A stretch of 30,324 bases of DNA, taken from positions 1 through 30,324 of the IMG/VR virus record IMGVR_UViG_3300045988_066580. One strand, 5' to 3'. Under the pieces are notes generated by a model. That model did not search any database. It was not told the origin of the DNA and saw only the letters and a program-made list of their open reading frames with translations. The DNA comes from a virus. This document shows positions 67 to 22,029 of this stretch, piece after piece. The stretch's first letter is position 1. Every line of letters starts with the position of its first letter. Made by a program: the position numbers and the translations under genes.

Positions 67-158
67 GAAGTATAACCATATTTCTTTAAGGATAACCATT
101 TAAGAAAAAACATATAAGATAGTTTGCGCTTTGGTTGAGTTTATGTTATTGTCAAAAT

Positions 159-944
159 ATGGCAAAGATTAAAGAACAAGGGTTCGTAGCAGTAAGACAC
201 TGCATCATTCGAGACCGCACCATAGGCGTCTATACGAAACTCGTCTACATCATCATCGCTGACCACAGCGACGAAAACAATCTCAGCTTCCCGAGCGTAA
301 GCACCATAGCCGCCGAAGCCGGATGCACACCAAAGACGGCACTAAAGGCCATAAGGGAACTAATCGCCAAAGGGCTCATAACGCGGGAACATCGAGCACT
401 AGCCAATGGCGGCACCACGTCGTGCCTTTACCATCTTGAGGAGCCACGCAATTTCAAAGCCAATACTGAAAGGGCTAGGCAGTCTGACCCTGATACGCTT
501 GATAAAACGGTTTACCAAGCTCCAGAATCGACTACCACGGTAGAACCCGCACGCGAACCCGCACCGGTAGAACCAGCGCCACATAAGCGCGAGGAATACC
601 CGAACGCATTCGAACAACTATGGGCAATCTATCCGAAGCATGTGGCCAAGATGGCCGCTTACAAGGCGTGGCGTAAAGCAAAAGTAGGAATGAACAGCGC
701 CTTCCTCATGGCCAAGGTGCAAGCATTCGCAGGCCAGTGCGCCAACACGGAAACCCGGTTTATACCCAATTTCGCCACATGGCTCAACGGGGAAAGATGG
801 AATGACGAATACCGTCCAGACCCGCCACAGTCGCGTAAGCCCGCCACGAACGCGGAACGGAATATGCGGAATCTCGCTCAAGCGATGCAGTCGGGAACTG
901 ACCTTTTCGGCTTTCAGATTGAGTCCGGCGTGTCGCGTCCGTAA
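159..944 (+). CDS. Replisome-organizer / DnaD-like winged-helix protein (putative replication initiation)
   Basis: ORF track 135..944. ATG 159 (MAKIKEQGF) is preferred over TTG 135. N-terminal wHTH (SFPSVSTIAAEAGCTPKTALKAIRELIAKGLI). C-terminal FEQLWAIYPKH..KAWRKA..TWLNGERWNDE motif is remembered from phage replication-module proteins. Confidence 0.6.
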   Translation: MAKIKEQGFVAVRHCIIRDRTIGVYTKLVYIIIADHSDENNLSFPSVSTIAAEAGCTPKTALKAIRELIAKGLITREHRALANGGTTSCLYHLEEPRNFKANTERARQSDPDTLDKTVYQAPESTTTVEPAREPAPVEPAPHKREEYPNAFEQLWAIYPKHVAKMAAYKAWRKAKVGMNSAFLMAKVQAFAGQCANTETRFIPNFATWLNGERWNDEYRPDPPQSRKPATNAERNMRNLAQAMQSGTDLFGFQIESGVSRP

Positions 945-955
945 TCATGTATAAT
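926..955 (+). promoter_or_regulatory. Promoter-box variant c0: CGGCGTGTCGC-N13-TATAAT
   Basis: Same CGGCGTGTCGC box as the other six copies. It overlaps the last codons of the 159..944 gene. TATAAT lies at 950-955. Confidence 0.5.
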
Positions 956-1086
956 CGATTAATGCGACATGGAATGATGAATCAACCGCATTGTATGCCA
1001 AGTGGCCGCAAGTTGTGGCGACGCTTGGTGCTGAGGCGTTTCCGCTAGTGCATGTCAAGTTCGCTTATTGATAACGGTTCTCATTT

Positions 1087-1125
1087 ATGCCAGCTGATTT
1101 GTTTCGGCGGGCATTTTCTCTTTTC
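1087..1125 (+). terminator. Candidate intrinsic terminator (imperfect stem ATGCC..GGCAT plus T-rich tail)
   Basis: ATGCCAGC..GCGGGCAT stem followed by TTTCTCTTTTCT, directly upstream of promoter box c1. Confidence 0.35.
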
Positions 1126-1166
1126 TCGGCGTGTCGCACTCAACAATGATGTATTATGTAATTACC
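1126..1166 (+). promoter_or_regulatory. Conserved promoter box c1: TCGGCGTGTCGC-N14-TATTATGTAATTACC
   Basis: Near-identical to 2758, 3916 and 6123. TATTAT lies at 1153-1158 and the ATG follows 31 nt later, after an AGAAAGGA Shine-Dalgarno. Confidence 0.65.
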
Positions 1167-1189
1167 ACCGATAAGAAAGGACAAACAAA

Positions 1190-1450
1190 ATGATTAAACT
1201 CCAACCGTACAATCAAGGCGAATACATCTGCGACGCATACGTCATCATCGACGAAGAAACCGCAACCGCACACGTCCGCAACATTGACCACGGAATCAAC
1301 TTCGACATTGAGAATCTGAACAGTACAGGCGGTATTCTGTTCACCCTCAGAATTGAAATGCTTAAACGAGGATACAAACTCGGCAGATTCAAACCTGACT
1401 ACACCACCGAGGGCGGCTACAATGTGGACGTCTACGAACGCAAAGCCTGA
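1190..1450 (+). CDS. Hypothetical small protein (cassette 1 ORF, 86 aa)
   Basis: ORF track. It has the conserved leader with an AAAGGA RBS and is closed by the conserved hairpin. Confidence 0.7.
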   Translation: MIKLQPYNQGEYICDAYVIIDEETATAHVRNIDHGINFDIENLNSTGGILFTLRIEMLKRGYKLGRFKPDYTTEGGYNVDVYERKA

Positions 1451-1464
1451 AAATACTTATACTA

Positions 1465-1486
1465 GCCCCGCCCGCAAGGGCGGGGC
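1465..1486 (+). promoter_or_regulatory. Conserved hairpin GCCCCGCCC-GCAA-GGGCGGGGC (9-bp GC stem, GNRA loop, no U-tract)
   Basis: Perfect inverted repeat read directly. It is followed by CCTCAATGAAAGGAAAATAAA and ATG 1508. Confidence 0.85.
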
Positions 1487-1507
1487 CCTCAATGAAAGGA
1501 AAATAAA

Positions 1508-1915
1508 ATGCTGACACTATTCAACGATATACCCCCGTATGACATGCATTCCGTCGTTGAGTGCGACAAGACAAAAGACACGGCAATCTTCGAAACCGCA
1601 CTAACCATACAAGACAACCCCAAAATAGCCCGCTACCGCGTATGGCTCTCAGCATGGAAAGGCTTAGAAAACCGGCTGAGAAGCGGAGCACAATATAAAA
1701 CCTACATGATGGACGTCGTAGCCCCATCAGACTGGACGATTGATAAAGTCCACAATACGATACTCGCGTACCTTGCTGGAATCAGTCGGCTGGACTTCTC
1801 AAGCGGCATCCGATGGCGACACGGTGACTACCAGCCACAGCCACACGATTCAATCCAGGAAGACTACATCCTTTACCTTGACGACTTTCTGGACTCAATC
1901 ACACCAAACTTCTGA
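1508..1915 (+). CDS. Hypothetical protein (135 aa)
   Basis: ORF track. GAAAGGA RBS 8 nt upstream. Confidence 0.7.
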   Translation: MLTLFNDIPPYDMHSVVECDKTKDTAIFETALTIQDNPKIARYRVWLSAWKGLENRLRSGAQYKTYMMDVVAPSDWTIDKVHNTILAYLAGISRLDFSSGIRWRHGDYQPQPHDSIQEDYILYLDDFLDSITPNF

Positions 1916-1927
1916 AGGGGAGCAATC

Positions 1928-2341
1928 ATGGGCAATATCAATCATCCAGCACACTACACCGACGATACGAAGCCTTGCGAATGCATTGAAGTCGCGCAAT
2001 ATCACAGTTTTTGCGTAGGCAACGCGATAAAATACGTGTGGCGGCACCGACTTAAGGGGCGCCCCCTCGAAGACTTGCAGAAAGCGGAATGGTATCTGCA
2101 GAGGGCTATCGACAATGGAGAGAAATGCCGTCTGCAAATCGATGGCGAGCCATTGGACGCGCACAATCTCATGCAAGTGGGTAAGTGCTGTCTCTACATG
2201 GACAACCTGTTTGATATTGCTAGGCGCGCTGTGACCTACCGTGAAGGCTTTTTCTGGATATACCTGCGTAAAGGTGATTTGCAAAACATGTTGCGAATCG
2301 TGAAAATGATGCAAGCGGAATGTAAGGATGGATTGAAATGA
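1928..2341 (+). CDS. DUF3310-like phage protein
   Basis: N-terminal INHPAHYT..CIEV..GNAIKYVWRHRLKG..EDLQKAEWYL matches the remembered DUF3310 pattern (NHPxHY..gNaiKY..R...K...DL.KA.). Confidence 0.6.
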   Translation: MGNINHPAHYTDDTKPCECIEVAQYHSFCVGNAIKYVWRHRLKGRPLEDLQKAEWYLQRAIDNGEKCRLQIDGEPLDAHNLMQVGKCCLYMDNLFDIARRAVTYREGFFWIYLRKGDLQNMLRIVKMMQAECKDGLK

Positions 2342-2781
2342 ACAAGTTGCAGGTGCAGGCGCTCCTAACCTATGCCAGCGCTTTTGATAATCGTCTTGTG
2401 ACCGATATCCAGGTGGCCGCATGGATGGAAGCGTTAGCCACTGACATGCGACTTGACGTGGCGAAGGAAGCGATACGCCAATTTTTCGCGAGCCCGGAAT
2501 ATGTGAAGAAGCGTCCGTATCTCATGCCCGCCGACGTTAACAGCTTTTGGCGTAGGTGGAAACGTGACCATACGCCTTCCGAGGCTGACATTACGCGGGA
2601 GATGGCCGCGCTTGGCATTGAGGGTGATGCGAGTTGGGAGTATCGGCGGAATCGGTTGAGTGGGCGTGGTTTGGAAGAGTCCGCGCAATCCGCTAAACGG
2701 TTCCGTGGTCTTGAGAGCGCGCGGGGGTTGAGTCGTTTGGGTGAGATTCTACCGCGTTCGGCGTGTCGCACTCAACAATAA
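2338..2781 (+). CDS. Hypothetical protein (147 aa), ATGA-coupled to the upstream gene
   Basis: ORF track. The last codons are encoded by promoter box c2. Confidence 0.65.
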   Translation: MNKLQVQALLTYASAFDNRLVTDIQVAAWMEALATDMRLDVAKEAIRQFFASPEYVKKRPYLMPADVNSFWRRWKRDHTPSEADITREMAALGIEGDASWEYRRNRLSGRGLEESAQSAKRFRGLESARGLSRLGEILPRSACRTQQ

Positions 2782-2798
2782 TGTATTATGTAATTACC
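2758..2798 (+). promoter_or_regulatory. Conserved promoter box c2
   Basis: TCGGCGTGTCGCACTCAACAATAATGTATTATGTAATTACC. TATTAT lies at 2784-2789 and ATG 2821 follows after 31 nt. Confidence 0.65.
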
Positions 2799-2820
2799 AA
2801 ACAAAGAAAGGACAAAGAAA

Positions 2821-3075
2821 ATGACCAGCATCGAATTCACCAAGACCAGCACCTACGCGGACCTTCTCCACTGCTGGGAGAATGAAGACTACCAGCTTGA
2901 CGGCATGAACTACGAACTCCGCTACTGCGAGCCTATCAGCCGTGACCAAGCTGTTGACGATGAAGGCCACGCCATGCATGACGAATACATCTTTCACAAG
3001 CCGGGCGAAGAGTTCTACAACCCGTCTAGGACGTTCACCGCCGAAGAGGTCGAGCAGTTCGCCCAGACTTGGTGA
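2821..3075 (+). CDS. Small strongly acidic protein (cassette 2 ORF, 84 aa)
   Basis: ORF track. Hand count gives about 19 D/E versus 5 K/R. It has the conserved leader and RBS and is followed by the conserved hairpin. Confidence 0.75.
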   Translation: MTSIEFTKTSTYADLLHCWENEDYQLDGMNYELRYCEPISRDQAVDDEGHAMHDEYIFHKPGEEFYNPSRTFTAEEVEQFAQTW

Positions 3076-3117
3076 CAACCATAGCGGCGGAGGCAACCGC
3101 ACAACCCTCTATCCCAA

Positions 3118-3133
3118 CCGCCCGCAAGGGCGG
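3118..3133 (+). promoter_or_regulatory. Conserved hairpin, left arm truncated (CCGCCC-GCAA-GGGCGG)
   Basis: Same loop, right arm and downstream ACCAATTGAAAGGAACAATA-ATG as the other copies. Confidence 0.7.
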
Positions 3134-3156
3134 GGCACCAATTGAAAGGAACAATA

Positions 3157-3750
3157 ATGACACTCAATGAAAAATATATGGCAGTACTCAACGAAGTCCC
3201 CAACTTCGTCACCGACCTCACCGCCAACGCAGGGCAACGCACCTACAAGTACCTCAACCTATCCACCATCCTCAAGACCATCAAACCTATTTTTGCGAAG
3301 CATGATTTAGCCTTCCGACAGGTGGTGCGCATGGGCGCGGTAGGCGAAAAAGTGAGCTACGGCACGGTCGAAACAATCATTTTCGACGCTGAAGAGACCT
3401 TGAACGTCGGTTATTACCCCTTCATTATTGTCCCCGACCCTCAGGCAATCGGCTCCGCAGTAACCTACGCGCGCCGCTACTCCCTCTACGCTGTCCTTGG
3501 TATCTTCCCCGACAAGGACGACGACGGAGCCGCCATGCGCGACTATTCCACCCCACAGCATCCACGCAAGGCCACGGCACAGGAAGTCAACGACCTTAAC
3601 GACATGGCCCAGGCCGCTGGAACAAATCTTGGGTTTTATGTCAATGCTTTGGCATCGCAGTTCGGCCATGAGGTGCGTAAGCCTCAGGACTTGACCGAAC
3701 ATGACGTCATGCTTCTCCGTCAGGCCATCAGTAAGAGCGGCAATAAGTGA
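3157..3750 (+). CDS. erf: ERF-family single-strand annealing protein
   Basis: Central GSAVTYARRYSLYAVLGIFPDKDDDG is the classic ERF motif. ATG 3157 is preferred over TTG 3142, which lies inside the conserved leader. Confidence 0.8.
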   Translation: MTLNEKYMAVLNEVPNFVTDLTANAGQRTYKYLNLSTILKTIKPIFAKHDLAFRQVVRMGAVGEKVSYGTVETIIFDAEETLNVGYYPFIIVPDPQAIGSAVTYARRYSLYAVLGIFPDKDDDGAAMRDYSTPQHPRKATAQEVNDLNDMAQAAGTNLGFYVNALASQFGHEVRKPQDLTEHDVMLLRQAISKSGNK

Positions 3751-3914
3751 AAAAGGTTGCTATATTCTGCGGTTTCTTGGCGCTTACGATTGTGTCCGCT
3801 GTTGCTTTGGGAGTGGCATTTCAATGCGATGATAGGCTCATGATTCTTCTCGCATTGGTTACTATCCTTATTGGTTTGGCTGGTATGGGTTTCGTTGTCA
3901 TGGATTATCTCTAG
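3747..3914 (+). CDS. Small 2-TM membrane protein (55 aa), GTGA-coupled to erf
   Basis: My translation: VKKVAIFCGFLALTIVSAVALGVAFQCDDRLMILLALVTILIGLAGMGFVVMDYL. It is below the 60-aa cutoff of the ORF track. Confidence 0.5.
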   Translation: MKKVAIFCGFLALTIVSAVALGVAFQCDDRLMILLALVTILIGLAGMGFVVMDYL

Positions 3915-3915
3915 T

Positions 3916-3956
3916 TCGGCGTGTCGTAACCCAAACTGTTGTATTATGTAATTACC
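3916..3956 (+). promoter_or_regulatory. Conserved promoter box c3
   Basis: TCGGCGTGTCGTAACCCAAACTGTTGTATTATGTAATTACC. TATTAT lies at 3942-3947 and ATG 3979 follows after 31 nt. Confidence 0.65.
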
Positions 3957-3978
3957 AAACAAAGAAAGGACAAACAAA

Positions 3979-4173
3979 ATGAACATCAACCTCAGCACAG
4001 CAGAAGACTACATCATCAGCTACCTTGAAAACAGCGGACAGGATGACGGCAACTGGGACACCTACGAAGCCGCGAAAGACCTCCGCAACATCTGCATCCT
4101 GAACGGGTACACCGATTATGAACAGGTAGACCCCGACGAGTTCACCGAACTGCTCAAGGAACACGCACTCTAA
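3979..4173 (+). CDS. Small strongly acidic protein (cassette 3 ORF, 64 aa)
   Basis: ORF track. Hand count gives about 15 D/E versus 3 K/R. It has the conserved leader and is closed by the hairpin. Confidence 0.75.
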   Translation: MNINLSTAEDYIISYLENSGQDDGNWDTYEAAKDLRNICILNGYTDYEQVDPDEFTELLKEHAL

Positions 4174-4184
4174 ACCAAACCACA

Positions 4185-4206
4185 GCCCCGCCCGCAAGGG
4201 CGGGGC
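4185..4206 (+). promoter_or_regulatory. Conserved hairpin GCCCCGCCC-GCAA-GGGCGGGGC
   Basis: Perfect copy, followed by ACCATCTAATGAAAGGAACAATA-ATG 4230. Confidence 0.85.
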
Positions 4207-4229
4207 ACCATCTAATGAAAGGAACAATA

Positions 4230-4502
4230 ATGAAAGATACAATAACCCTTGCCCAATACGTCAGATTCCTCAAAGAGACACTAACACAGCTCGAAGAAGT
4301 GGCTGAAGACTCACCAGACATTGAACTAAAAGACTACACGCCGCAAATCGCAATCTACCCCAATTCCAGAGAGGACGCCCTCGACTTGATATACCTGGCT
4401 GGAATCGAACCAGCGATTTACAAAAACATCGTAAGAGGACAATTCAACACCGTCAACGGAATCGCCTACGTCCACTACGACGAAGAGAAAGAGGATAAAT
4501 GA
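4230..4502 (+). CDS. Hypothetical acidic protein (90 aa)
   Basis: ORF track 4215..4502. ATG 4230 is preferred because the upstream MKGTI codons are the conserved leader. Confidence 0.7.
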   Translation: MKDTITLAQYVRFLKETLTQLEEVAEDSPDIELKDYTPQIAIYPNSREDALDLIYLAGIEPAIYKNIVRGQFNTVNGIAYVHYDEEKEDK

Positions 4503-4909
4503 GACTCACACTATGGCCGGGAGCCATGCCAATCACATTCAAAACCGTCGCCGGAGAGCGAGAATACAAAGTCATGAAGGGTGTTTACGGATACCTCATT
4601 CAATCCAAAAACGGCAATTTGTTCACACTGGACAATGGAAACAACTTGCGCGTAGTTGACCCTAGCAACGTCCAATATCTTAACTCACTGACAGAGGGGG
4701 AACGTCTAAAATTCCTCCGCAACACGTTCGGCATCAGCCAACGAGAACTGGCCAGAATGTACGGCGTCCGGCAAGCAATGGTAGCTCACTGGGAAACAGA
4801 CTACAGGCATATCGCCCCGAAACGCGTCGAACAAATTGAAGCCACACTATTCAACGCTTACATTCGCACAGCATCTAGAGCCGGGCTTCCGGTAGGAAAG
4901 GAAAACTAA
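4499..4909 (+). CDS. XRE-family helix-turn-helix protein
   Basis: C-terminal LKFLRNTFGISQRELARMYGVRQAMVAHWETDYRHIAPKRVEQIE is an HTH_3-type motif. ATGA-coupled to 4230..4502. Confidence 0.7.
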   Translation: MRLTLWPGAMPITFKTVAGEREYKVMKGVYGYLIQSKNGNLFTLDNGNNLRVVDPSNVQYLNSLTEGERLKFLRNTFGISQRELARMYGVRQAMVAHWETDYRHIAPKRVEQIEATLFNAYIRTASRAGLPVGKEN

Positions 4910-4910
4910 A

Positions 4911-5798
4911 ATGAGAATTCTGAACGTCTCTCAAGCACAGGACACGCAAGCATGGTTGGACGCCAGAATAGGCAAAATCACTGGCACCAAAGCCGGAACG
5001 CTCGCGCTCGAACATTACGCCCAGAAGGACGTAGCCAAGCTCGAAGCCATGGCAGACAAGGCAAAGACCGAAGAAAAGGCCGAAGAATACAGAGAGAAAG
5101 CCGAACAAGCCAAACGAGATAACGCACGGTTGAAAGTCAACCTCGACTTCTGGCAGTTTCTTGCTGACATGATTGCGGAACAGCCGGACGGAGAACCGCC
5201 AATGGAACGCGGACACCGTTTGGAAAACACTAACATCATGATGGCGTGCAAGAAACTTGACATTTCTCCCGACATTGTGGAATTCGATACTGGAATGTGG
5301 GTAAGTGACGTGGATGACCGTATTGCGGTCAGCCCGGACGCCCACGAAAAACCGCAAATCGATATTAGCGGGCTGAAATATAATCCCACGTTCGCGTTCG
5401 AAGCGAAAAGCCTGGGCACGAAATACCATTTGCAGACGGTTGTCCCGTTCCGCGCATTCCAGATGCTCAACGATCCTGAAACTCCGAATAGTCAACGTGA
5501 TGAATTGCGGTCGTTGGCGCTCAAACTGTTCCCGGAGATTTTGGAATCGCGTAGGGAGTTCGACTTCATCCCTGAACAGTATCAGGCTCAAGTGCTCCAG
5601 TATTTTGTCGTTAACCCTGACTTGCAGACAGTGTATTTCACCATGTACGACGATAGGGTATATAGTAGTCTGCGACATGAGGTGTTCGCGGTTGACCGGC
5701 TGAGTGTCGCAAGTGAAATCGAAGCACAGGAGACAAAGGAATTGCAGACATTGGCACTTATTGACGAACTGCAAAAACTGGGGGGTGTGGACTGGTGA
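4911..5798 (+). CDS. YqaJ-like (lambda Exo-type, PD-(D/E)xK) recombination exonuclease
   Basis: N-terminal QAQDTQAWLDARIGKITGTKAGTL matches the YqaJ pattern (Q.s.eWl..R.G.iTaS). The gene is in the same arm as erf. Confidence 0.65.
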   Translation: MRILNVSQAQDTQAWLDARIGKITGTKAGTLALEHYAQKDVAKLEAMADKAKTEEKAEEYREKAEQAKRDNARLKVNLDFWQFLADMIAEQPDGEPPMERGHRLENTNIMMACKKLDISPDIVEFDTGMWVSDVDDRIAVSPDAHEKPQIDISGLKYNPTFAFEAKSLGTKYHLQTVVPFRAFQMLNDPETPNSQRDELRSLALKLFPEILESRREFDFIPEQYQAQVLQYFVVNPDLQTVYFTMYDDRVYSSLRHEVFAVDRLSVASEIEAQETKELQTLALIDELQKLGGVDW

Positions 5799-6073
5799 GC
5801 ATTTCACGACGTGTCATTTACGCGGTGTTCGATGATTGCGCGGGATGCAGACACCGTGAGTTGATTGACGAACTCCGAAAAATGGTGTTGCGCGTCAAGA
5901 AGAAAACGGGCGTTATGATTGCGCTCATGGTTGTTCAGCCGGGGAATAGTCGTTACTGGACTTTGCGCAAGTGTCACAAGTATTCTAATGCGCCGTTCTT
6001 CGTGTTCGATGGGGTGTGTTATCGCCATGTGGATGCGCTTGAGGTGCAGTGCTTGGCGTATTGCAGTCGTTGA
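5795..6073 (+). CDS. Hypothetical protein with CxxC motif (possible thioredoxin-fold)
   Basis: ORF track. GTGA-coupled start. VFDDCAGCRH is present near the N-terminus. The fold assignment is weak. Confidence 0.45.
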   Translation: MSISRRVIYAVFDDCAGCRHRELIDELRKMVLRVKKKTGVMIALMVVQPGNSRYWTLRKCHKYSNAPFFVFDGVCYRHVDALEVQCLAYCSR

Positions 6074-6080
6074 AATTCAG

Positions 6081-6118
6081 GGGAACCTACGAAGGAATTT
6101 CGTGGGTTCCCTTTTTTT
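6081..6118 (+). terminator. Strong intrinsic terminator (13-bp stem, GGAAT loop, T7 tract)
   Basis: GGGAACCTACGAA-GGAAT-TTCGTGGGTTCCC followed by TTTTTTT, immediately before promoter box c4. Confidence 0.85.
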
Positions 6119-6122
6119 ATTT

Positions 6123-6163
6123 TCGGCGTGTCGTGTCCGCAAGTAGTGTATTATGTAATTACC
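6123..6163 (+). promoter_or_regulatory. Conserved promoter box c4
   Basis: TCGGCGTGTCGTGTCCGCAAGTAGTGTATTATGTAATTACC. TATTAT lies at 6149-6154 and ATG 6186 follows after 31 nt. Confidence 0.7.
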
Positions 6164-6185
6164 AAACAAAGAAAGGACAAACAAA

Positions 6186-6389
6186 ATGAACACCGAAACC
6201 AACTGCTTCAAGGGATACCACATCAAGGCCACCACCAACGAGGACGGCACGGTAGACGTCGAAGCATGGTGGAACCAGAACGCAACAGGCGAATACTGCG
6301 AGACACCACACGCGTACGGCAAATTCGCCACCAGAAAAGAATACCTCAAGTGGCTCACCGGCAAGTTCGCTGAAATCGTCGGAGAATAA
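6186..6389 (+). CDS. Hypothetical small protein (cassette 4 ORF, 67 aa)
   Basis: ORF track. It has the conserved leader and is closed by the hairpin. Confidence 0.7.
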   Translation: MNTETNCFKGYHIKATTNEDGTVDVEAWWNQNATGEYCETPHAYGKFATRKEYLKWLTGKFAEIVGE

Positions 6390-6397
6390 CCCACCCC

Positions 6398-6419
6398 GCC
6401 CCGCCCGCAAGGGCGGGGC
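6398..6419 (+). promoter_or_regulatory. Conserved hairpin GCCCCGCCC-GCAA-GGGCGGGGC
   Basis: Perfect copy, followed by ACCAATTGAAAGGAACCAGCA-ATG 6441. Confidence 0.85.
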
Positions 6420-6440
6420 ACCAATTGAAAGGAACCAGCA

Positions 6441-6587
6441 ATGAGCAAAAACGACGGATTCGTGGCAATGCTCTTTATTTTCGGATTCGTATTATCCGCG
6501 AACGAAGACATGAACTTCATCAATATTATCGGTGTCGCGTGCGTGTTTTCGGCACTCTACATCTACCGCAAAGGAGCGAAGAAATGA
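6441..6587 (+). CDS. Small 2-TM membrane protein (48 aa)
   Basis: My translation: MSKNDGFVAMLFIFGFVLSANEDMNFINIIGVACVFSALYIYRKGAKK. The ATG sits at the canonical distance from the hairpin and RBS. ATGA-coupled to the next gene. Confidence 0.5.
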   Translation: MSKNDGFVAMLFIFGFVLSANEDMNFINIIGVACVFSALYIYRKGAKK

Positions 6588-6946
6588 ACAAAGCAGTACA
6601 GGCCGGACTAGTCGCCGGATACCTCAACACTTGCGTCCAGCTCACGGACGGGTACGGAATGAAATTAAGAATCATGCGTGAAAGCTGGAAAATGGCGTGC
6701 GACAAAGTAGCCGACCATTACGAACAACTCACGCAATCCACGGACGATAACCGCAAACAATGTGTGGCGGTAGGGAAAAAGACACAGGCGCAAAGCTTGA
6801 AGAATCTTGCCGTGTGCGGTTGGTGTCTCGCTCCCTTCATCACTTTCCCCGTATGGCTCCTCATGGCGAGGAAGACGGGTTTACGTGGCTATCTGACGGC
6901 AGTGAGCGTATGCGCGTTCACCCGGCATATCGCGGAAATGTATTAA
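6584..6946 (+). CDS. Hypothetical protein with C-terminal hydrophobic segment (120 aa)
   Basis: In-frame part of track ORF 6425..6946, starting at MNKAVQAG. Its ATG overlaps the stop of 6441..6587. Confidence 0.55.
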   Translation: MNKAVQAGLVAGYLNTCVQLTDGYGMKLRIMRESWKMACDKVADHYEQLTQSTDDNRKQCVAVGKKTQAQSLKNLAVCGWCLAPFITFPVWLLMARKTGLRGYLTAVSVCAFTRHIAEMY

Positions 6947-6956
6947 GGGGGATGCA

Positions 6957-7235
6957 GTGGAATATAAGAACGTTGACGCCTACGATTATAAGGTGATGGC
7001 ACACTACTCCGCAAGCGGGGTCGTCTGGGAGGTGTACGAGCGTACCGCAGACGGTTGGGAGAAACGCAAACGCGGATACGACAAGCGGGTCGCCAAAGCA
7101 AGGGAGAGAGCGCACGCGGTTATCGTTCGGCTTGCCGAAGTGCGTTATGGCGCTGATTATCGCGTGTCCAGGTTGGTGCCATTGAAGTATCCGATGTGTT
7201 GGGGTGTGTTTGTCGAACGTCGGCGTGTCGCATAA
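6957..7235 (+). CDS. Hypothetical protein (92 aa), GTG start
   Basis: ORF track. AAGGGGG lies 5 nt upstream of the GTG. The last codons (ERRRVA) are encoded by promoter-box copy c5. Confidence 0.6.
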   Translation: MEYKNVDAYDYKVMAHYSASGVVWEVYERTADGWEKRKRGYDKRVAKARERAHAVIVRLAEVRYGADYRVSRLVPLKYPMCWGVFVERRRVA

Positions 7236-7255
7236 CCAAGTATTGCATGAAGAAC
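7220..7255 (+). promoter_or_regulatory. Degenerate promoter box c5 (TCGGCGTGTCGC-N9-TATTGC)
   Basis: The box is intact, but the spacer is shorter and the -10 and leader are degenerate. No cassette ORF follows. Confidence 0.4.
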
Positions 7256-7273
7256 TCTGCGACTGACACCACA

Positions 7274-7295
7274 GCCCCGCCCGCAAGGGCTGGGC
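7274..7295 (+). promoter_or_regulatory. Conserved hairpin, one mismatch (GCCCCGCCC-GCAA-GGGCTGGGC)
   Basis: Same flanks (CACAGCCCC..) as the copy at 4185. Followed by ACACTTAATGGAAGGAATAAAAC-ATG 7319. Confidence 0.75.
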
Positions 7296-7318
7296 ACACT
7301 TAATGGAAGGAATAAAAC

Positions 7319-17208: not shown

Positions 17209-17254
17209 ATTGTGTTACTCCTTATTGAGAATGATTATCGTTTTTCCTTGGTTC

Positions 17255-19368: not shown

Positions 19369-21126
19369 TCAGGCGCCAGCCTTCGGAGTCAGGACACCGG
19401 CACTCTTAACCTTGGTCAGAGCGCCACCGGCGAAAATCTCGCTCAGGTACTCCTGCTCGTTGGTCTTGAGCGCGAAGTTGGTGAACGCGCTGATGGACGT
19501 ATCACCCACCACACCATAGGCTTCCGGAACGATAATCACGGCGCGGGTATTCGCGTCATCCGCATCAGTCCACCAATCCGGGGTGATAACCTTATCGACA
19601 CCGAGGTAGGCGGCGAGGTTGTCGTTGCCGTAGCCGACGAGCGGGCGACCGATACCGTCCGCGGCGGTGATGACGTCAACCTTGGTCTCGGGACTCATGA
19701 CGAGTACCTTGGTGCCGGCGGCTGTAATCTTGGATGCAAGACCGACCACATCGAGCACGAGATTAGCACGAGTACCCTCGGCCGCGCTCAGAACGAAATT
19801 CTTCCCCGCGAACTCGCTGGAAGTGTCCTTAGCATCGGTCTGCACGGAGCGGAAGAAATCAAGGTCGGTATAACCGCCAAGAATAATCTGACGGTCGATA
19901 GCGTGCAGAATGTAGTTCGGCATCTCGGCCAGCAGATACTTCACGAGTGCGCCCGGCTTATCGGTGCGACGAATATCGCCCTTGTTAAGCACTGCATACT
20001 TCACCACGAAATCGGCGGCGAGCTTGCGCTCAACCAGGTTGAACTTCTGGGTCTTCTTGCTGGTGCCATAGTCGGCAACCTTGTAGCCGTGGGCGCGGGT
20101 ATCATCGGTCAGGCCTGCCAGCTGAGCGCCGACGGTGAAGCTGTCAACGTCAAGCTTACGATACAGCGGCCACAGTTCGGAAGCCTTGTTGAGAGCGTCT
20201 TCAATCTCCGTGATAACGCTGGTCGGGACAAGCTTGCCGACACTAGCTTCATCGATGGAAGAGTTGTCGGAATAGGCGTGGCGTGCCAGTTCCTCACGCC
20301 AAGCATTCTTGAAGCCCTGCACTCCCTGGTTATCGGTACGCCACAACGCCTGTTCGTACGCCTTGGTGGCATCCTCGCTCTTCAGCCAGTCCTTCAGCGG
20401 GTCACTGGTCTTGGCGAGAGACTGACGCGCACCCCCCGCACTATTGATGATGATATTGGTTCGACCATTAGCCACGGTACCCTCCTTGCTATTCTCCACG
20501 TCATTGGACTGGTCGGGGGTCTCCGGCCTATCATCCGTGTCATCGGTCTCGGTCAGCCCGTTGATGGCGTCCGTGATCTGGTCGAGCAAAGACTGGGCTT
20601 CATCCTTGGTGAGATTGTTTTTGAGTTCCATAATTTTCCCTTCGATATTGTTTAGACTGCGGAATACGGCCTTACTGTCCGCACCACGATAGACCACGCT
20701 AATCTCAACGAGTTCGGCGTTATGGATTACGCCCTTTTCGTCGGGGTCGGAGTCGAAATCGATTGTGATGCTAAACGAGTTCGTCAGCATTCCCTCGCTT
20801 GCCAACTGTCGCACGTTCCGGCCTTGCTCATTATCGCTTAACCTTGCCTGAGCCATTAGACCATCATCAGAGAGCCAAAGCTTCTCAATGATGCCGACTT
20901 GCGCGGTAATGCTCGGCATGTGGTCGAGCAGTAGCGGCAAGGTCAGATGGTCGGAGTCGGCTAGGTCTGTCACGAGCTTGAGTTGACCATCGTTCACGGG
21001 GGCTTGCAAGGTGTGCAAGTCTACCGTGTAGCCGTTGGTCATGCGCGTCCCGCTGTTTGCGAGGAATGTCAACGTGTGGCCGTCACTGCTGACGTTGCTG
21101 GCGCCGCATGTGAGTGTCTGTTGCAT
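19369..21126 (-). CDS. Prohead protease - scaffold - major capsid protein fusion (HK97 type)
   Basis: The N-terminal ~170 aa have an S78-like protease pattern (LLLDHMPS..VGIIEKLWLSDDGL..GMLTNSFSITIDF). An acidic coiled linker follows, then a ~350-aa capsid-like C-terminus. Confidence 0.75.
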   Translation of the reverse strand: MQQTLTCGASNVSSDGHTLTFLANSGTRMTNGYTVDLHTLQAPVNDGQLKLVTDLADSDHLTLPLLLDHMPSITAQVGIIEKLWLSDDGLMAQARLSDNEQGRNVRQLASEGMLTNSFSITIDFDSDPDEKGVIHNAELVEISVVYRGADSKAVFRSLNNIEGKIMELKNNLTKDEAQSLLDQITDAINGLTETDDTDDRPETPDQSNDVENSKEGTVANGRTNIIINSAGGARQSLAKTSDPLKDWLKSEDATKAYEQALWRTDNQGVQGFKNAWREELARHAYSDNSSIDEASVGKLVPTSVITEIEDALNKASELWPLYRKLDVDSFTVGAQLAGLTDDTRAHGYKVADYGTSKKTQKFNLVERKLAADFVVKYAVLNKGDIRRTDKPGALVKYLLAEMPNYILHAIDRQIILGGYTDLDFFRSVQTDAKDTSSEFAGKNFVLSAAEGTRANLVLDVVGLASKITAAGTKVLVMSPETKVDVITAADGIGRPLVGYGNDNLAAYLGVDKVITPDWWTDADDANTRAVIIVPEAYGVVGDTSISAFTNFALKTNEQEYLSEIFAGGALTKVKSAGVLTPKAGA

Positions 21127-21192
21127 TCGTGTTTCCCTTACGTTTGGAGCGTCCTTACGGGGCTTTATTGCTCTATACTGATTCTAACACTA

Positions 21193-22029
21193 TTAATGAG
21201 AATGATTCTCATTAATTATTGGGCTGAGATTGCCGATTATTTGTTTCTCCCAGTCACTGAGCGGCCATACGGTCACATCCTCCGCGGCCTTCAGTTCCGC
21301 GGCCTTCAGTTCCGCGGCCTTCAGTTCCGCGGCCTTCAGTTCCGCGGCCTTGGCCTCGCTCATCAGATAGCCGCCGCCGTAGATGGCCTTCCTCACCGCC
21401 CTCTGCGAGTCAAGCGCCCGAATGAACGCCACATCCGAAGCCTTGACGCGGAACTCGACCTGCTTGCCAATCTTCCCGAGCCTGCTCACGGTAAGCAGTT
21501 CACGCGGATACGCGTATTTCGGCGGATGCCTGCGTTGCTCTTTCCTGACGCGCTTCACGGTCTCGTCGATCGCGTTGGCCAAGTCCGGCGCGGTGCGGAT
21601 CAGGTCATCACCGAAACTCGTCACGAACGACGTGTTGACCTGCGCGCCGTTCGCGTATTCGATGGTCGAATTCGTGACGATCATGTGCGCCCCATTGCAC
21701 GACGTGCTGGAGAAGATCGTGAGATACGGCGCGAACAGGAAGAACGGAATTTGCTCCGTCCGATAGAACGTGCAGATCTTCGCCAGGATGCTGAACGGCG
21801 GATTATCCACAACCACCGCACCGCCCGAATAGTCGAACCGCTCGTAGTCCCCGCCCGGATAGAACGGGCGCACCACCTTGCTGGGGTCGATACCATATTC
21901 ACTGCATGCCCAGTCCTTTATCGTCTCATACACTTCGGGTGGAGTATAGCAGTCATCCGTGGTCTTCTTCGGCTTGAATTTTTCCACGAATCCGTCATAA
22001 TCGTTAAACGTTGCTTGTCTTGCTTTCAT
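21193..22029 (-). CDS. DNA methyltransferase (DNPPF motif IV; probably N6-adenine) with C-terminal (AAELK)n repeat
   Basis: KKTTDDCYTPPEVY..RPFYPGGDYE..VVVDNPPFS is present. Start ATG 22029 overlaps (ATGA) the stop of the Com-like ORF, so the track extension to 22095 was rejected. Confidence 0.7.
   Translation of the reverse strand: MKARQATFNDYDGFVEKFKPKKTTDDCYTPPEVYETIKDWACSEYGIDPSKVVRPFYPGGDYERFDYSGGAVVVDNPPFSILAKICTFYRTEQIPFFLFAPYLTIFSSTSCNGAHMIVTNSTIEYANGAQVNTSFVTSFGDDLIRTAPDLANAIDETVKRVRKEQRRHPPKYAYPRELLTVSRLGKIGKQVEFRVKASDVAFIRALDSQRAVRKAIYGGGYLMSEAKAAELKAAELKAAELKAAELKAAEDVTVWPLSDWEKQIIGNLSPIINENHSH
21281..21353. repeat. 15-bp in-frame tandem repeat TCCGCGGCCTTCAGT x4 plus a partial fifth copy
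   Basis: Perfect copies at 21281, 21296, 21311 and 21326, with a partial copy at 21341-21353. Encodes KAAEL repeats in the methyltransferase. Confidence 0.95.

Follow-up and report, generated by a model that had tools for sequence, protein, structure and literature searches.

Small cargo genes exchanged between shared promoter and hairpin flanks in the early region of a 30-kb siphophage, most probably of Bifidobacterium

The early region of the viral genome IMGVR_UViG_3300045988_066580 (IMG/VR; 30,324 nucleotides, the whole of which is called the window here) raises the question of why small, mutually unrelated open reading frames (ORFs) stand one after another between near-identical promoter-like and hairpin sequences, interleaved with the ordinary early genes of the phage. 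To answer it, the window was compared with 28 related contigs of about 30 kb, which were collected by scanning IMG/VR with the -10/start motif and then by a protein-anchored fetch, and which make 29 genomes with the window. The comparison suggests that the region is an array of five slots whose shared promoter and hairpin flanks double as expression signals and as recombination handles for a shuffled set of small genes (the cargo); we put the probability of this reading at about 70%.

An earlier note on this sequence had placed a promoter-like element at 1126, 2758, 3916 and 6123, and a search of the window with the 41-nt pattern TCGGCGTGTCGY-N14-TATTATGTAATTACC returned exactly those four matches on the plus strand, compared with 0.00 in shuffled sequences. 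The exact 10-mer core of the element, the box CGGCGTGTCG, is present in seven copies: six lie within the rightward gene block, on the plus strand, and the seventh is on the minus strand (26319-26310), preceding the leftward tRNA/terminase block. All of them are co-oriented with local transcription. Beyond the four full copies, it occurs at 926 and 7221 (+) and at the minus-strand site. The variants that the note had listed at 926, 7220 and on the opposite strand all carry the exact core, but the copy at 7221 proved to be what is left of an emptied slot. The GC hairpin CCCCGCCCGCAAGGGCGGGGC that was said to close the small ORFs was found where expected, exact at 1466, 4186 and 6399, with one mismatch at 7275, and with two mismatches and a shorter stem at 3116; these five copies, all on the plus strand, compare with 0 in shuffles.

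A full unit begins with the box, 15 variable nt, TGTATTATGTAATTACC, an A/C-rich leader containing GAAAGGAC and the ATG, and continues with the small ORF, its stop codon, 9-43 nt, the hairpin GCCCCGCCC-GCAA-GGGCGGGGC, and CACC..GAAAGGAA..ATG of the next gene. The ATG had been described as lying 31 nt after TATTAT throughout; this is the case in three copies, but the distance is 32 nt in the copy at 1126. The first leader, previously read as AAACAAAG..., has the actual sequence ACCGATAAGAAAGGACAAACAAA.

Four of the five slots in the window are filled, all on the plus strand. The slot 1 cassette (1127..1486) has its box at 1127-1136, TATTAT at 1152-1157, the leader, cargo F5 (1190-1450, 86 aa) and a hairpin at 1465-1486; slot 2 (2759..3133) has its box at 2759-2768, TATTAT at 2784-2789, cargo F6 (2821-3075, 84 aa) and the shortened hairpin at 3118-3133. 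Slot 3 (3917..4206) carries F1 (3979-4173, 64 aa) between box 3917-3926 with TATTAT 3942-3947 and hairpin 4185-4206, and slot 4 (6124..6419) carries F2 (6186-6389, 67 aa) between box 6124-6133 with TATTAT 6149-6154 and hairpin 6398-6419. The four ORF sizes agreed with those given before, and the ORFs fall into separate families at BLASTP E<1e-5. Slot 5 (7221..7295) retains an intact box (7221-7230) and a hairpin with one mismatch (7274-7295), with a decayed -10 and no cargo in between.

The backbone genes had the same order in all 29 genomes, namely Rep-(slot 1)-g135 DUF3310 g147-(slot 2)-ERF tm55-(slot 3)-g90 HTH Exo g92a-(slot 4)-tm48 tm120 g92b-(slot 5)-g51 HNH. The cargo ORFs clustered into families F1-F8 and about five further unnamed families. 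Slot 1 held F5 in 16 genomes, F4 in four, F6 or an F6-like ORF in three and none in two (it is empty in 040564 and 048955), the promoter then driving g135 directly. Slot 2 demonstrated six unrelated cargo families or none: F4 (16 genomes), F3 (six), F7 (two), F6 (the window), an F2-like ORF, F1, and no cargo in 041424. Slot 3 was occupied by F1 in 28 genomes and by F2 in one. Slot 4 contained F2 (17 genomes), a divergent 67-aa family (four), F7, an F6-like ORF and F4 in tandem, or none, and slot 5 contained F3 of three subtypes (17 genomes), F8 (two), F4, F7 or two tandem cassettes (two genomes) and was empty in the window, 041424 and 063342. Families F3, F4, F6 and F7 were each found in three or four different slots. 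Presence, absence and replacement of the small ORFs precisely between box and hairpin had been named beforehand as the test of a portable cassette analogous to the promoter-early/stem-loop (PeSL) cassettes of T4-type phages, and the variation in slot content across the 28 relatives supports that proposal.

The closest relative, 041424 (about 95% protein identity), demonstrated an arrangement in slot 1 of promoter, F6, a promoter-less leader remnant, F5 and hairpin, and its slot 2 is empty, with the promoter fused to ERF; the window has F5 in slot 1 and F6 in slot 2. The different placement of F5 and F6 reflects very recent movement of cargo between slots. In 041424, slot 2 has its deletion junction inside the GAAAGGA motif that is common to the leader and the post-hairpin ribosome site. 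The deletion in slot 5 is common to the window and 041424, and the decay is further advanced in 041424. What remains at 7221-7295 is an emptied slot in decay and not a weak variant of the promoter.

A further deletion lies ahead of slot 1. The variant promoter P0 (926..955, +) has its box at 926-935, N14 and TATAAT at 950-955, and overlaps the last Rep codons; P0-type elements in relatives drive three tandem paralogs, or g135 directly. Contig 038840 carries three tandem paralogous genes of 138-155 aa between Rep and slot 1 (oriented segment 1824-3134), and window positions 956..1125 (+) align to the 3' end of the third paralog and its terminator, with the last 25 or so codons left. A small RNA at 926-1125, which was considered, was rejected, the stretch being the 3' end of the tandem-paralog array deleted from the window. 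The remnant ends in a U-tract terminator, with a folded stem at about 1087-1114 (+) followed by TTTTCTCTTTTCT. The note had also remarked that the box supplies the last codons of the upstream genes. This overlap is conserved for Rep and g92b, but not for g147, where it comes from a window-specific loss of a TAG kept by most relatives; supplying these codons is no design feature of the box.

Where genomes carry unlike cargos in the same slot, homology covers the upstream gene, box, -10 and leader, ends 0-17 nt past the ATG and resumes 0-11 nt before the hairpin. The promoter-leader block (about 75 nt) and the block of hairpin and ribosome-binding site (RBS; about 45 nt) are nearly identical between slots, and spacer alleles typical of one slot turn up in other slots. 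Near-identical spacers across slots within a genome were observed 27 times, compared with 15.2 +/- 3.0 after permutation (0/2000 permutations reached 27), in a test that ignores phylogeny; this points to intragenomic gene conversion. Conservation across genomes within one slot was uniform at about 0.9 and singled out neither promoter nor hairpin; the signal lies in conservation between slots. Four contigs of 20-50 kb, including a k=119 assembly, have the window's layout. Minority layouts recurred across contigs and data sets: F3 was seen in slot 2 six times, and the combination of F4 (slot 1) and F7 (slot 2) came up in 3300045988 as well as in 3300023504. The comparison shows that cargo has been moved, replaced, lost and doubled at the promoter-leader and hairpin-RBS boundaries and that promoter copies exchange sequence within genomes.

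The promoter flank is unusual. The spacing between box and TATTAT was fixed at N15 in 91 copies of the window clade. The -35 position reads GCGTGT, as the note had said in calling it other than TTGACA, and the TG abuts TATTAT instead of forming a spaced TGn; a generic sigma-70 scan calls none of the repeat promoters because of the GCGTGT at the -35 position. Canonical promoters are present elsewhere in the same phages. The Rep promoter (124..161, +), TTGCGC-17-TGtTATTGT with an ATG at 159, 6 nt later, was the only intergenic match to TTGnnn-N17-TGnTAnnnT in a strict search of the window, and relatives with a diverged Rep keep TTGCAA/TTGCAC-17-TGnTAnAnT-7-ATG (e.g., TTGCAA-17-TGtTATAGT-7-ATG). 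The intergenic promoters of BlindBasel1, which together with BlindUri1 is the nearest cultured relative, read TTGACA-17-TGtTATACT. The box promoters therefore form a class distinct from the canonical promoters, and the idea that the box serves as a -35 for the host primary sigma factor is disfavoured on the same ground. The Rep gene and the gene of an HTH_17 protein appear leaderless, the ATG standing 6 nt after the -10, and this geometry is kept in relatives despite divergence.

U-tract terminators directly abut P1 and P4, the promoters of slots 1 and 4; the one before P4 is a canonical intrinsic terminator (6079..6122, +) with a 15-bp stem, then TTTTTTTATTTT, and z = -5.4. No other canonical promoter was found in the early region for the genes downstream of P1 and P4, including ERF, Exo and HNH. 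From these two facts we infer that the box promoters must be active. In some genomes the promoter alone drives ERF or g135. The minus-strand copy belongs to a late-operon promoter (26286..26319) with the box at 26319-26310, N16, TGaTATATT and a -10 at 26293-26288. Behind it lie the tRNAs, terminase, structural and lysis genes, and it is conserved in relative 044552.

The palindrome GTAATTAC in the predicted start region had been proposed, together with the box, as the target of a dedicated regulator. It is common, but it is not universal, since it is replaced in relatives by the alleles TATTATAAAACTATC, ..GTAATTATC and TAATATTTAATTACC, while an AT-rich discriminator and then A(C/T)C are kept after the -10. 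The palindrome thus seems dispensable, and the proposal stands for the box, which marks a separate promoter class and whose core recurs elsewhere, but not for the palindrome, which an allele lacks.

The recurrence of the core was seen at several distances from the window clade. A sister clade of phages of about 30 kb (52 loci; exonuclease 46-48% identical) was reached through a two-clade exonuclease alignment, the 120 exonuclease matches listed for the window all being close relatives. Here GCGTGTCG-CTGA-TTGCCT-N17-TGTGATATATT precedes ERF and Exo, and GCGTGTCG occurs in 43 copies on the plus strand vs 12 on the minus strand in 728 kb, with about 11 expected per strand. BlindBasel1 and BlindUri1 each have a single copy of GCGTGTCG, which immediately precedes a canonical promoter. 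The exact 10-mer, inverted, abuts TTGAAA-17-TATACT in prophage loci of Bifidobacterium type that are related to a prophage of B. pseudocatenulatum, and GGCGTGTCG-TAC-TTGATT-N17-TATAAA stands ahead of a 59-aa gene at an AcrIC5 locus described below. GCGTGTCG is thus a wider Bifidobacterium-phage feature. A cis element at variable register beside promoters is best read as a predicted protein-binding site, and in the window clade the box core seems to have taken the place of the -35. A dedicated trans-acting factor likely reads the box. One possible candidate is the 61-aa HTH_17 protein (29983..30183, -; PF12728, E = 2.3e-10), the first gene of the leftward operon, which has a box-less promoter TGaTACAAT (30183-30175) with the ATG at 30168, 6 nt later; a host protein would fit equally well. 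In the sister clade and in BlindBasel1, too, the leftward operon starts with a small HTH gene of this kind, the assignment being Pfam-confirmed in the window and made by eye in the other two. A literature search with the box sequence returned primers only, and a scan of genome contigs with box-N15-TATTATGTAATTACC gave 0 matches. The leader AAGAAAGGACRAACAAAATG used as a contig query matched only unrelated sequences, mostly metagenome-assembled genomes of Firmicutes; by itself, this leader amounts to a strong ribosome site of generic type and carries no information on the host.

The promoters of these relatives have repeats of their own. Mining of the sister clade for 12-mer repeats yielded LysM coding repeats only and no promoters. 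Two sister-clade promoter modules (L183 6660-6837 and 7697-7941) combine GCGTGTCG with an inverted repeat, GTCCTAC..TAGGAC, on the upstream side and with a long palindrome that spans the -10/+1 region (TGATATATTATATATATCA), and BlindBasel1 promoters have the -10 embedded in an inverted repeat (TGTTATAC..GATAACA). These inverted repeats may be operators.

Three of the four full hairpin copies fold into a stem of 9 bp capped by a GCAA loop (about -22 kcal/mol). Across variants, 95% of the stem cells remained paired vs 36-58% in slid controls; three stem pairs demonstrated compensatory double changes (G-C to A-U, C-G to U-A), and single changes in the stem were mostly G-U wobbles, valid only for the plus-strand RNA. 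The loops vary (GCAA, ACGC, ACAA, ACAC, AAGC, GCGT), even within one genome, and F8 is followed by a different hairpin of like size. This free variation argues against loop-specific recognition and for a role of the stem itself. A boxB-like nut site, which would have the conserved loop of the lambda element, is disfavoured by loops that vary while the stem is kept and by the lack of an Rfam family match; an RNase III site is disfavoured by the 9-bp stem. The stem directly before a U-tract that defines an intrinsic terminator was not found either, there being no T-run 3' of the hairpins. A terminator scan called none of the five on the plus strand, and the same scan called true terminators at 6079-6113 (+) and 7855-7824 (-). 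The next backbone gene starts about 20 nt past the hairpin, has no promoter of its own, and the hairpins must therefore let much transcription through; the hairpin is probably not a strong terminator. BlindBasel1 has the order ORF, unique GC hairpin without a U-tract, GAAAGGAAC and ATG, which makes the intercistronic hairpin-RBS design ancestral. The step that seems new in the window clade is that the hairpin has been homogenised into one sequence.

We propose the following working of a slot. The 10-bp box CGGCGTGTCG at about -37..-28 stands in for the -35, followed by N15, TATTAT, an AT-rich discriminator and an A/C-rich leader of about 25 nt with the Shine-Dalgarno (SD) sequence GAAAGGA; then come 0-2 small ORFs, the 9-bp GC hairpin without a U-tract and, about 20 nt on, the RBS and ATG of the next backbone gene. 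Judging from the layout, the promoter would start or restart transcription past the true terminators and feed both the cargo and the downstream backbone genes. Because the box promoters have neither a -35 nor a correctly spaced TGn, and because the core recurs beside other promoters, a trans-acting factor most likely docks at the box; these would then be delayed-early/late promoters. At the RNA level, the hairpin may attenuate transcription leakily and/or stabilise the 3' end of the cargo message rather than halt transcription completely, and it would also be the 3' homology block. The flanks would provide portable homology, with cargo exchanged precisely there, and the phage's own pair of proteins, the ERF single-strand-annealing protein (3157..3750, +; PF04404, E = 3.5e-18) and its partner, the YqaJ-type exonuclease (4911..5798, +; PF09588), presumably catalyses exchange between the short repeats. 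Pairs of a single-strand-annealing protein and an exonuclease require only short homologies.

Several points weigh against this reading. All 29 genomes are metagenome assemblies from one cluster of about 85-95% identity, the spacer permutation leaves phylogeny aside, and the unusual arrangement of contig 29647_11 rests on one contig. Exchange mediated by the repeats is not strictly separable from general recombination that is tolerated only at these boundaries, and the part given to ERF and YqaJ is a candidate role. Promoter activity, the start site and hairpin behaviour are deduced from sequence and layout, and the box could be an unusual host -35 or an operator. As for the cargo, Pfam, PHROGs and NCBIfam gave no match for any of the eight named families, and the AlphaFold model of F6 matched nothing in the PDB at E <= 0.001, its one match being viral and uncharacterised.

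A bolder form of the proposal, which we consider tentative and on balance doubtful, holds that the box docks a factor common to many Bifidobacterium phages and prophages and was moved to the -35, that the hairpin gates read-through, and that ERF drives an integrase-free 'phage integron' exchanging anti-defence genes, including anti-CRISPRs. If this were true, all non-immediate-early transcription would be factor-dependent, and anti-defence genes would be displayed at the head of every early operon.

The rival that survives best is a timed switch, in which the hairpins terminate or attenuate the host RNA polymerase such that only cargo is made first, a phage factor acting at the box (Q/AlpA-like) or on RNA (N-like) later allows read-through, and the shuffling is a by-product. 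Every slot is indeed ordered promoter, small ORF, hairpin and backbone genes, an order that mirrors lambda pR-cro-nutR/tR1 and the read-through from immediate-early to delayed-early genes in T4. The box-less, leaderless HTH_17 gene at the head of the leftward operon, with its by-eye counterparts in the sister clade and BlindBasel1, would suit such a factor; the stem is under structural selection, and GNRA loops predominate (GCAA; GCGA in the element L230). However, the hairpins have no U-tract while the same phage has U-tract terminators elsewhere, the free variation of the loop speaks against a loop-specific RNA-binding antiterminator, and in some genomes hairpin-less promoters drive backbone genes directly. 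We regard the switch as unlikely.

Ordinary repeated signals would be a simpler account, in which one strong promoter and an RNA-stabilising hairpin are kept by selection and the differences in cargo come from unrelated recombination. Phages often reuse one promoter type (T7 A1-A3, SPO1, phiC31 early promoters), and BlindBasel1 has the order promoter, ORF, GC hairpin, GAAAGGAAC and ATG with unique sequences. Against this, identity also covers non-functional variants of the spacer and leader, which travel from slot to slot, the breakpoints are concentrated at the edges of the repeats, 041424 has a promoter-less leader remnant between F6 and F5 as well as a deletion junction in GAAAGGA, and an emptied slot decays. 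This makes selection on ordinary signals a rather improbable explanation compared with flanks that act as recombination handles.

It is more improbable still that the box is a repressor operator (stoperator-like) or a Chi-like hotspot that merely lies near promoters. The box is asymmetric and strictly co-oriented with transcription, its distance to the -10 varies (15, about 27 and 40 nt, once inverted), and it contains GGCGTG, which resembles the Lactococcus Chi, GCGCGTG. Yet no repressor or integrase was found in the window, the window clade has nothing else at the -35, the N15 spacing is fixed in the 91 copies, and every copy seen adjoins a -10/-35 pair. An assembly artefact, in which the repeats made assemblers mis-join cargo from mixed strains, would suit data that consist of short-read metagenome contigs but has a negligible chance, as the exact repeats (about 40 nt at the promoter, 30 nt at the hairpin) are shorter than typical final k-mers and as both the window layout, with its k=119 assembly, and the minority layouts recur.

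Among known systems, the closest are the PeSL and PmSL cassettes of T4-like myoviruses (Arbiol et al., 2010, PMC2839356; Comeau et al., 2014, PMC4122927). Both PeSLs and the array consist of repeated short regulatory motifs that end in an SD sequence and a start codon upstream of small ORFan genes (GAAAGGAC-N7-ATG in all copies here), both demonstrate motif-bounded replacements, insertions and deletions among close relatives, and homologous recombination between copies is the proposed driver in both. PmSLs have a regulator box (the Mot box) and a TATTAT -10 with no -35 (PMC4122927). In PeSLs, however, the promoter motif of about 50 bp includes or overlaps the stem-loop, which was shown to terminate transcription, whereas here the flanks are split, the hairpin lies 250-350 nt downstream after the cargo ORF, and it has no U-tract. 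The PeSL promoter is a near-consensus sigma-70 early promoter (TTGACA-N17-TATAAT, AT-rich upstream), and here CGGCGTGTCG replaces the -35. A 170-kb myovirus has about 50 PeSLs, while the fixed slots here number five, in a 30-kb siphophage whose host is Gram-positive; promoters that are strong in vivo and the formation of mini-circles are further features of PeSLs. The array is a PeSL analogue in an unrelated phage lineage, not a member of the PeSL family.

Morons of the lambdoid phages HK97/HK022 (reviewed in PMC3594210) are likewise genes with their own upstream promoter and downstream hairpin inserted between genes that are adjacent in relatives, as seen here from the empty slot 2 of 041424 and the empty slot 1 of 040564 and 048955. 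Morons are autonomous, with their own terminator and deviant GC content, and are expressed from repressed prophages. In contrast, no lysogeny genes were found here, the flanks are shared, the promoter-like element is followed by a hairpin without a U-tract and alone serves the backbone genes further on, and cargo GC (0.48-0.55) falls within the backbone range (0.44-0.56), with no sign of a foreign composition. The T4 middle promoters that depend on MotA have a good -10 and a phage-specific box at about -30 that replaces the -35 hexamer. A box in place of the -35 implies an activator or sigma appropriation, and these promoters, with the Mot box and TATTAT as in PmSLs, are the nearest parallel; the box sequence and the host differ, no MotA/AsiA homolog was detected, and factor dependence is a deduction here. 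The Mot box is mentioned in PMC4122927.

Integrons, too, are ordered arrays in which small accessory genes lie close to a promoter, a hairpin-forming repeat terminates each gene cassette, and the content differs between relatives, but the resemblance is only superficial because no integrase was found here; in addition, each slot has a promoter, the slots are interleaved with essential genes, and exchange is presumably homologous (ERF) instead of site-specific. With acr-aca loci, the array shares the grammar of an AcrIC5 locus and the HTH gene that directly follows a prophage homolog of F6 (both below), but the four cargo proteins of the window match no known Acr family and the link is by association only. 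Taken together, the array is an independently evolved split-flank cassette system, with the promoter 5' and the hairpin 3', that uses a non-canonical box promoter.

To our knowledge, descriptions of PeSL-type cassettes whose regulatory sequences double as recombination handles have been confined essentially to T4-like myoviruses that infect Gram-negative bacteria. The array would be the same evolutionary device with a different architecture, arising independently in a very abundant clade of small siphophages of a key gut genus. With 29 genomes, five slots and at least 12 cargo families, the variation is rich enough for recombination junctions to be read directly. It also provides a short list of mobile, selected small proteins, predicted to be strongly expressed, as host-takeover or anti-defence candidates in Bifidobacterium, where we know of almost nothing on lytic phage biology, and the box and -10 promoter class and the portable expression module are potential genetic tools for bifidobacteria.

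The intact cargo ORFs demonstrated dN/dS values of 0.07-0.39 (0.07 for F5) and are real proteins under purifying selection; some copies are pseudogenes, such as F3 in 056667 with a stop at codon 7 and F4 in 063342 with a frameshift. Seven of the eight families are net acidic (pI 4.05 for F1 and 4.26 for F6). The F6 model is a confident alpha/beta fold (pLDDT 88.4). F6 has about 40 cluster relatives, one of which belongs to a prophage of B. pseudocatenulatum. This homolog has no box and hairpin flanks; integrase and lysis genes lie on either side of it, and an HTH gene follows it directly. The Bifidobacterium-type prophage element L230 (ENA ERZ28636769 scaffold_92) has an F6 homolog and, 2.6 kb from it, an AcrIC5-family gene (3109-3400; PF22147, E = 2.7e-23). 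The latter is arranged as GGCGTGTCG box, promoter, AAAGAAAGGACGAACAAA-ATG, 59-aa ORF and a GC hairpin with a GCGA loop and no U-tract, and its leader is almost identical to that of the window. No match to a known Acr family was found for the window's four cargo proteins in Pfam, PHROGs and NCBIfam. The cargo plausibly consists of host-takeover or anti-defence genes, the anti-defence role by association only.

The window is a complete, circularly assembled siphophage genome of about 30.3 kb, as both of its ends lie inside one array of 22-bp iterons. These tandem iterons, GTAGGTACTAGGTACTGTGGGG, cover 1-67 and 30248-30324, directly 5' of Rep, and the array is a probable origin of replication. 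The rightward genes encode Rep (HTH_36/DnaD-like), DUF3310, ERF, an XRE-type HTH protein (4499-4909), the YqaJ exonuclease, small membrane proteins and HNH; the leftward genes encode the HTH_17 protein, SSB, an AAA ATPase and GNAT, followed by two tRNAs, terminase, portal, a protease-capsid fusion, siphovirus tail genes and an endolysin with GH25, CW_7 and LysM domains. The scanned ORFs of the window included no integrase, recombinase or repressor family. A megablast against INPHARED gave no match for either the early or the structural region. The portal is 51% identical to those of the Bifidobacterium asteroides phages BlindBasel1 and BlindUri1, the endolysin has relatives among phages of Actinobacteria, and the prophage with the F6 homolog lies in a 1.07-Mb B. 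pseudocatenulatum contig; since all three point there, the host is most probably a Bifidobacterium. The window clade is abundant, with 1024 exonuclease homologs at E<=1e-10 in public assemblies, the 120 listed being 89-95% identical.

Some smaller features were also recorded. An Rfam scan of the window reported a tRNA and nothing else. For the second tRNA (25898-25972, -), which Rfam confirms at 39 bits, ARAGORN gives 'tRNA-???' with no anticodon. Two overlapping ORFs at 26322-27412 (-), of 234 aa (AAA-like) and 163 aa (GNAT), match consecutive stretches (9-191 and 204-323) of one PHROG profile, phrog_11143, and may be a split or frameshifted gene. The 585-aa ORF at 19369-21126 (-) joins a prohead protease domain (Peptidase_S78) to a major capsid domain and looks like a protease-capsid fusion. 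Upstream of this capsid gene, a 300-aa ORF contains five copies of a 15-bp tandem repeat, TCCGCGGCCTTCAGT, at 21281-21355 and has a weak Pfam 'Decapeptide repeat' match. A palindromic motif, TTATTGATAACGGTTCYCATT / TTAATGAGAATGATTCTCATTAA, is intergenic at 1063-1085, 17220-17242, 21191-21216 and 24322-24344, three of the four copies lying between late genes, and could be an operator or an RNA element. On the plus strand of the early region, the cargo ORFs and the first gene after each hairpin (g135, ERF, g90) have a coding strand with C over G and A over T, and the genes further down each segment (g147, tm55, g92a, g92b) are G-rich, the period of this alternation being that of the slots.

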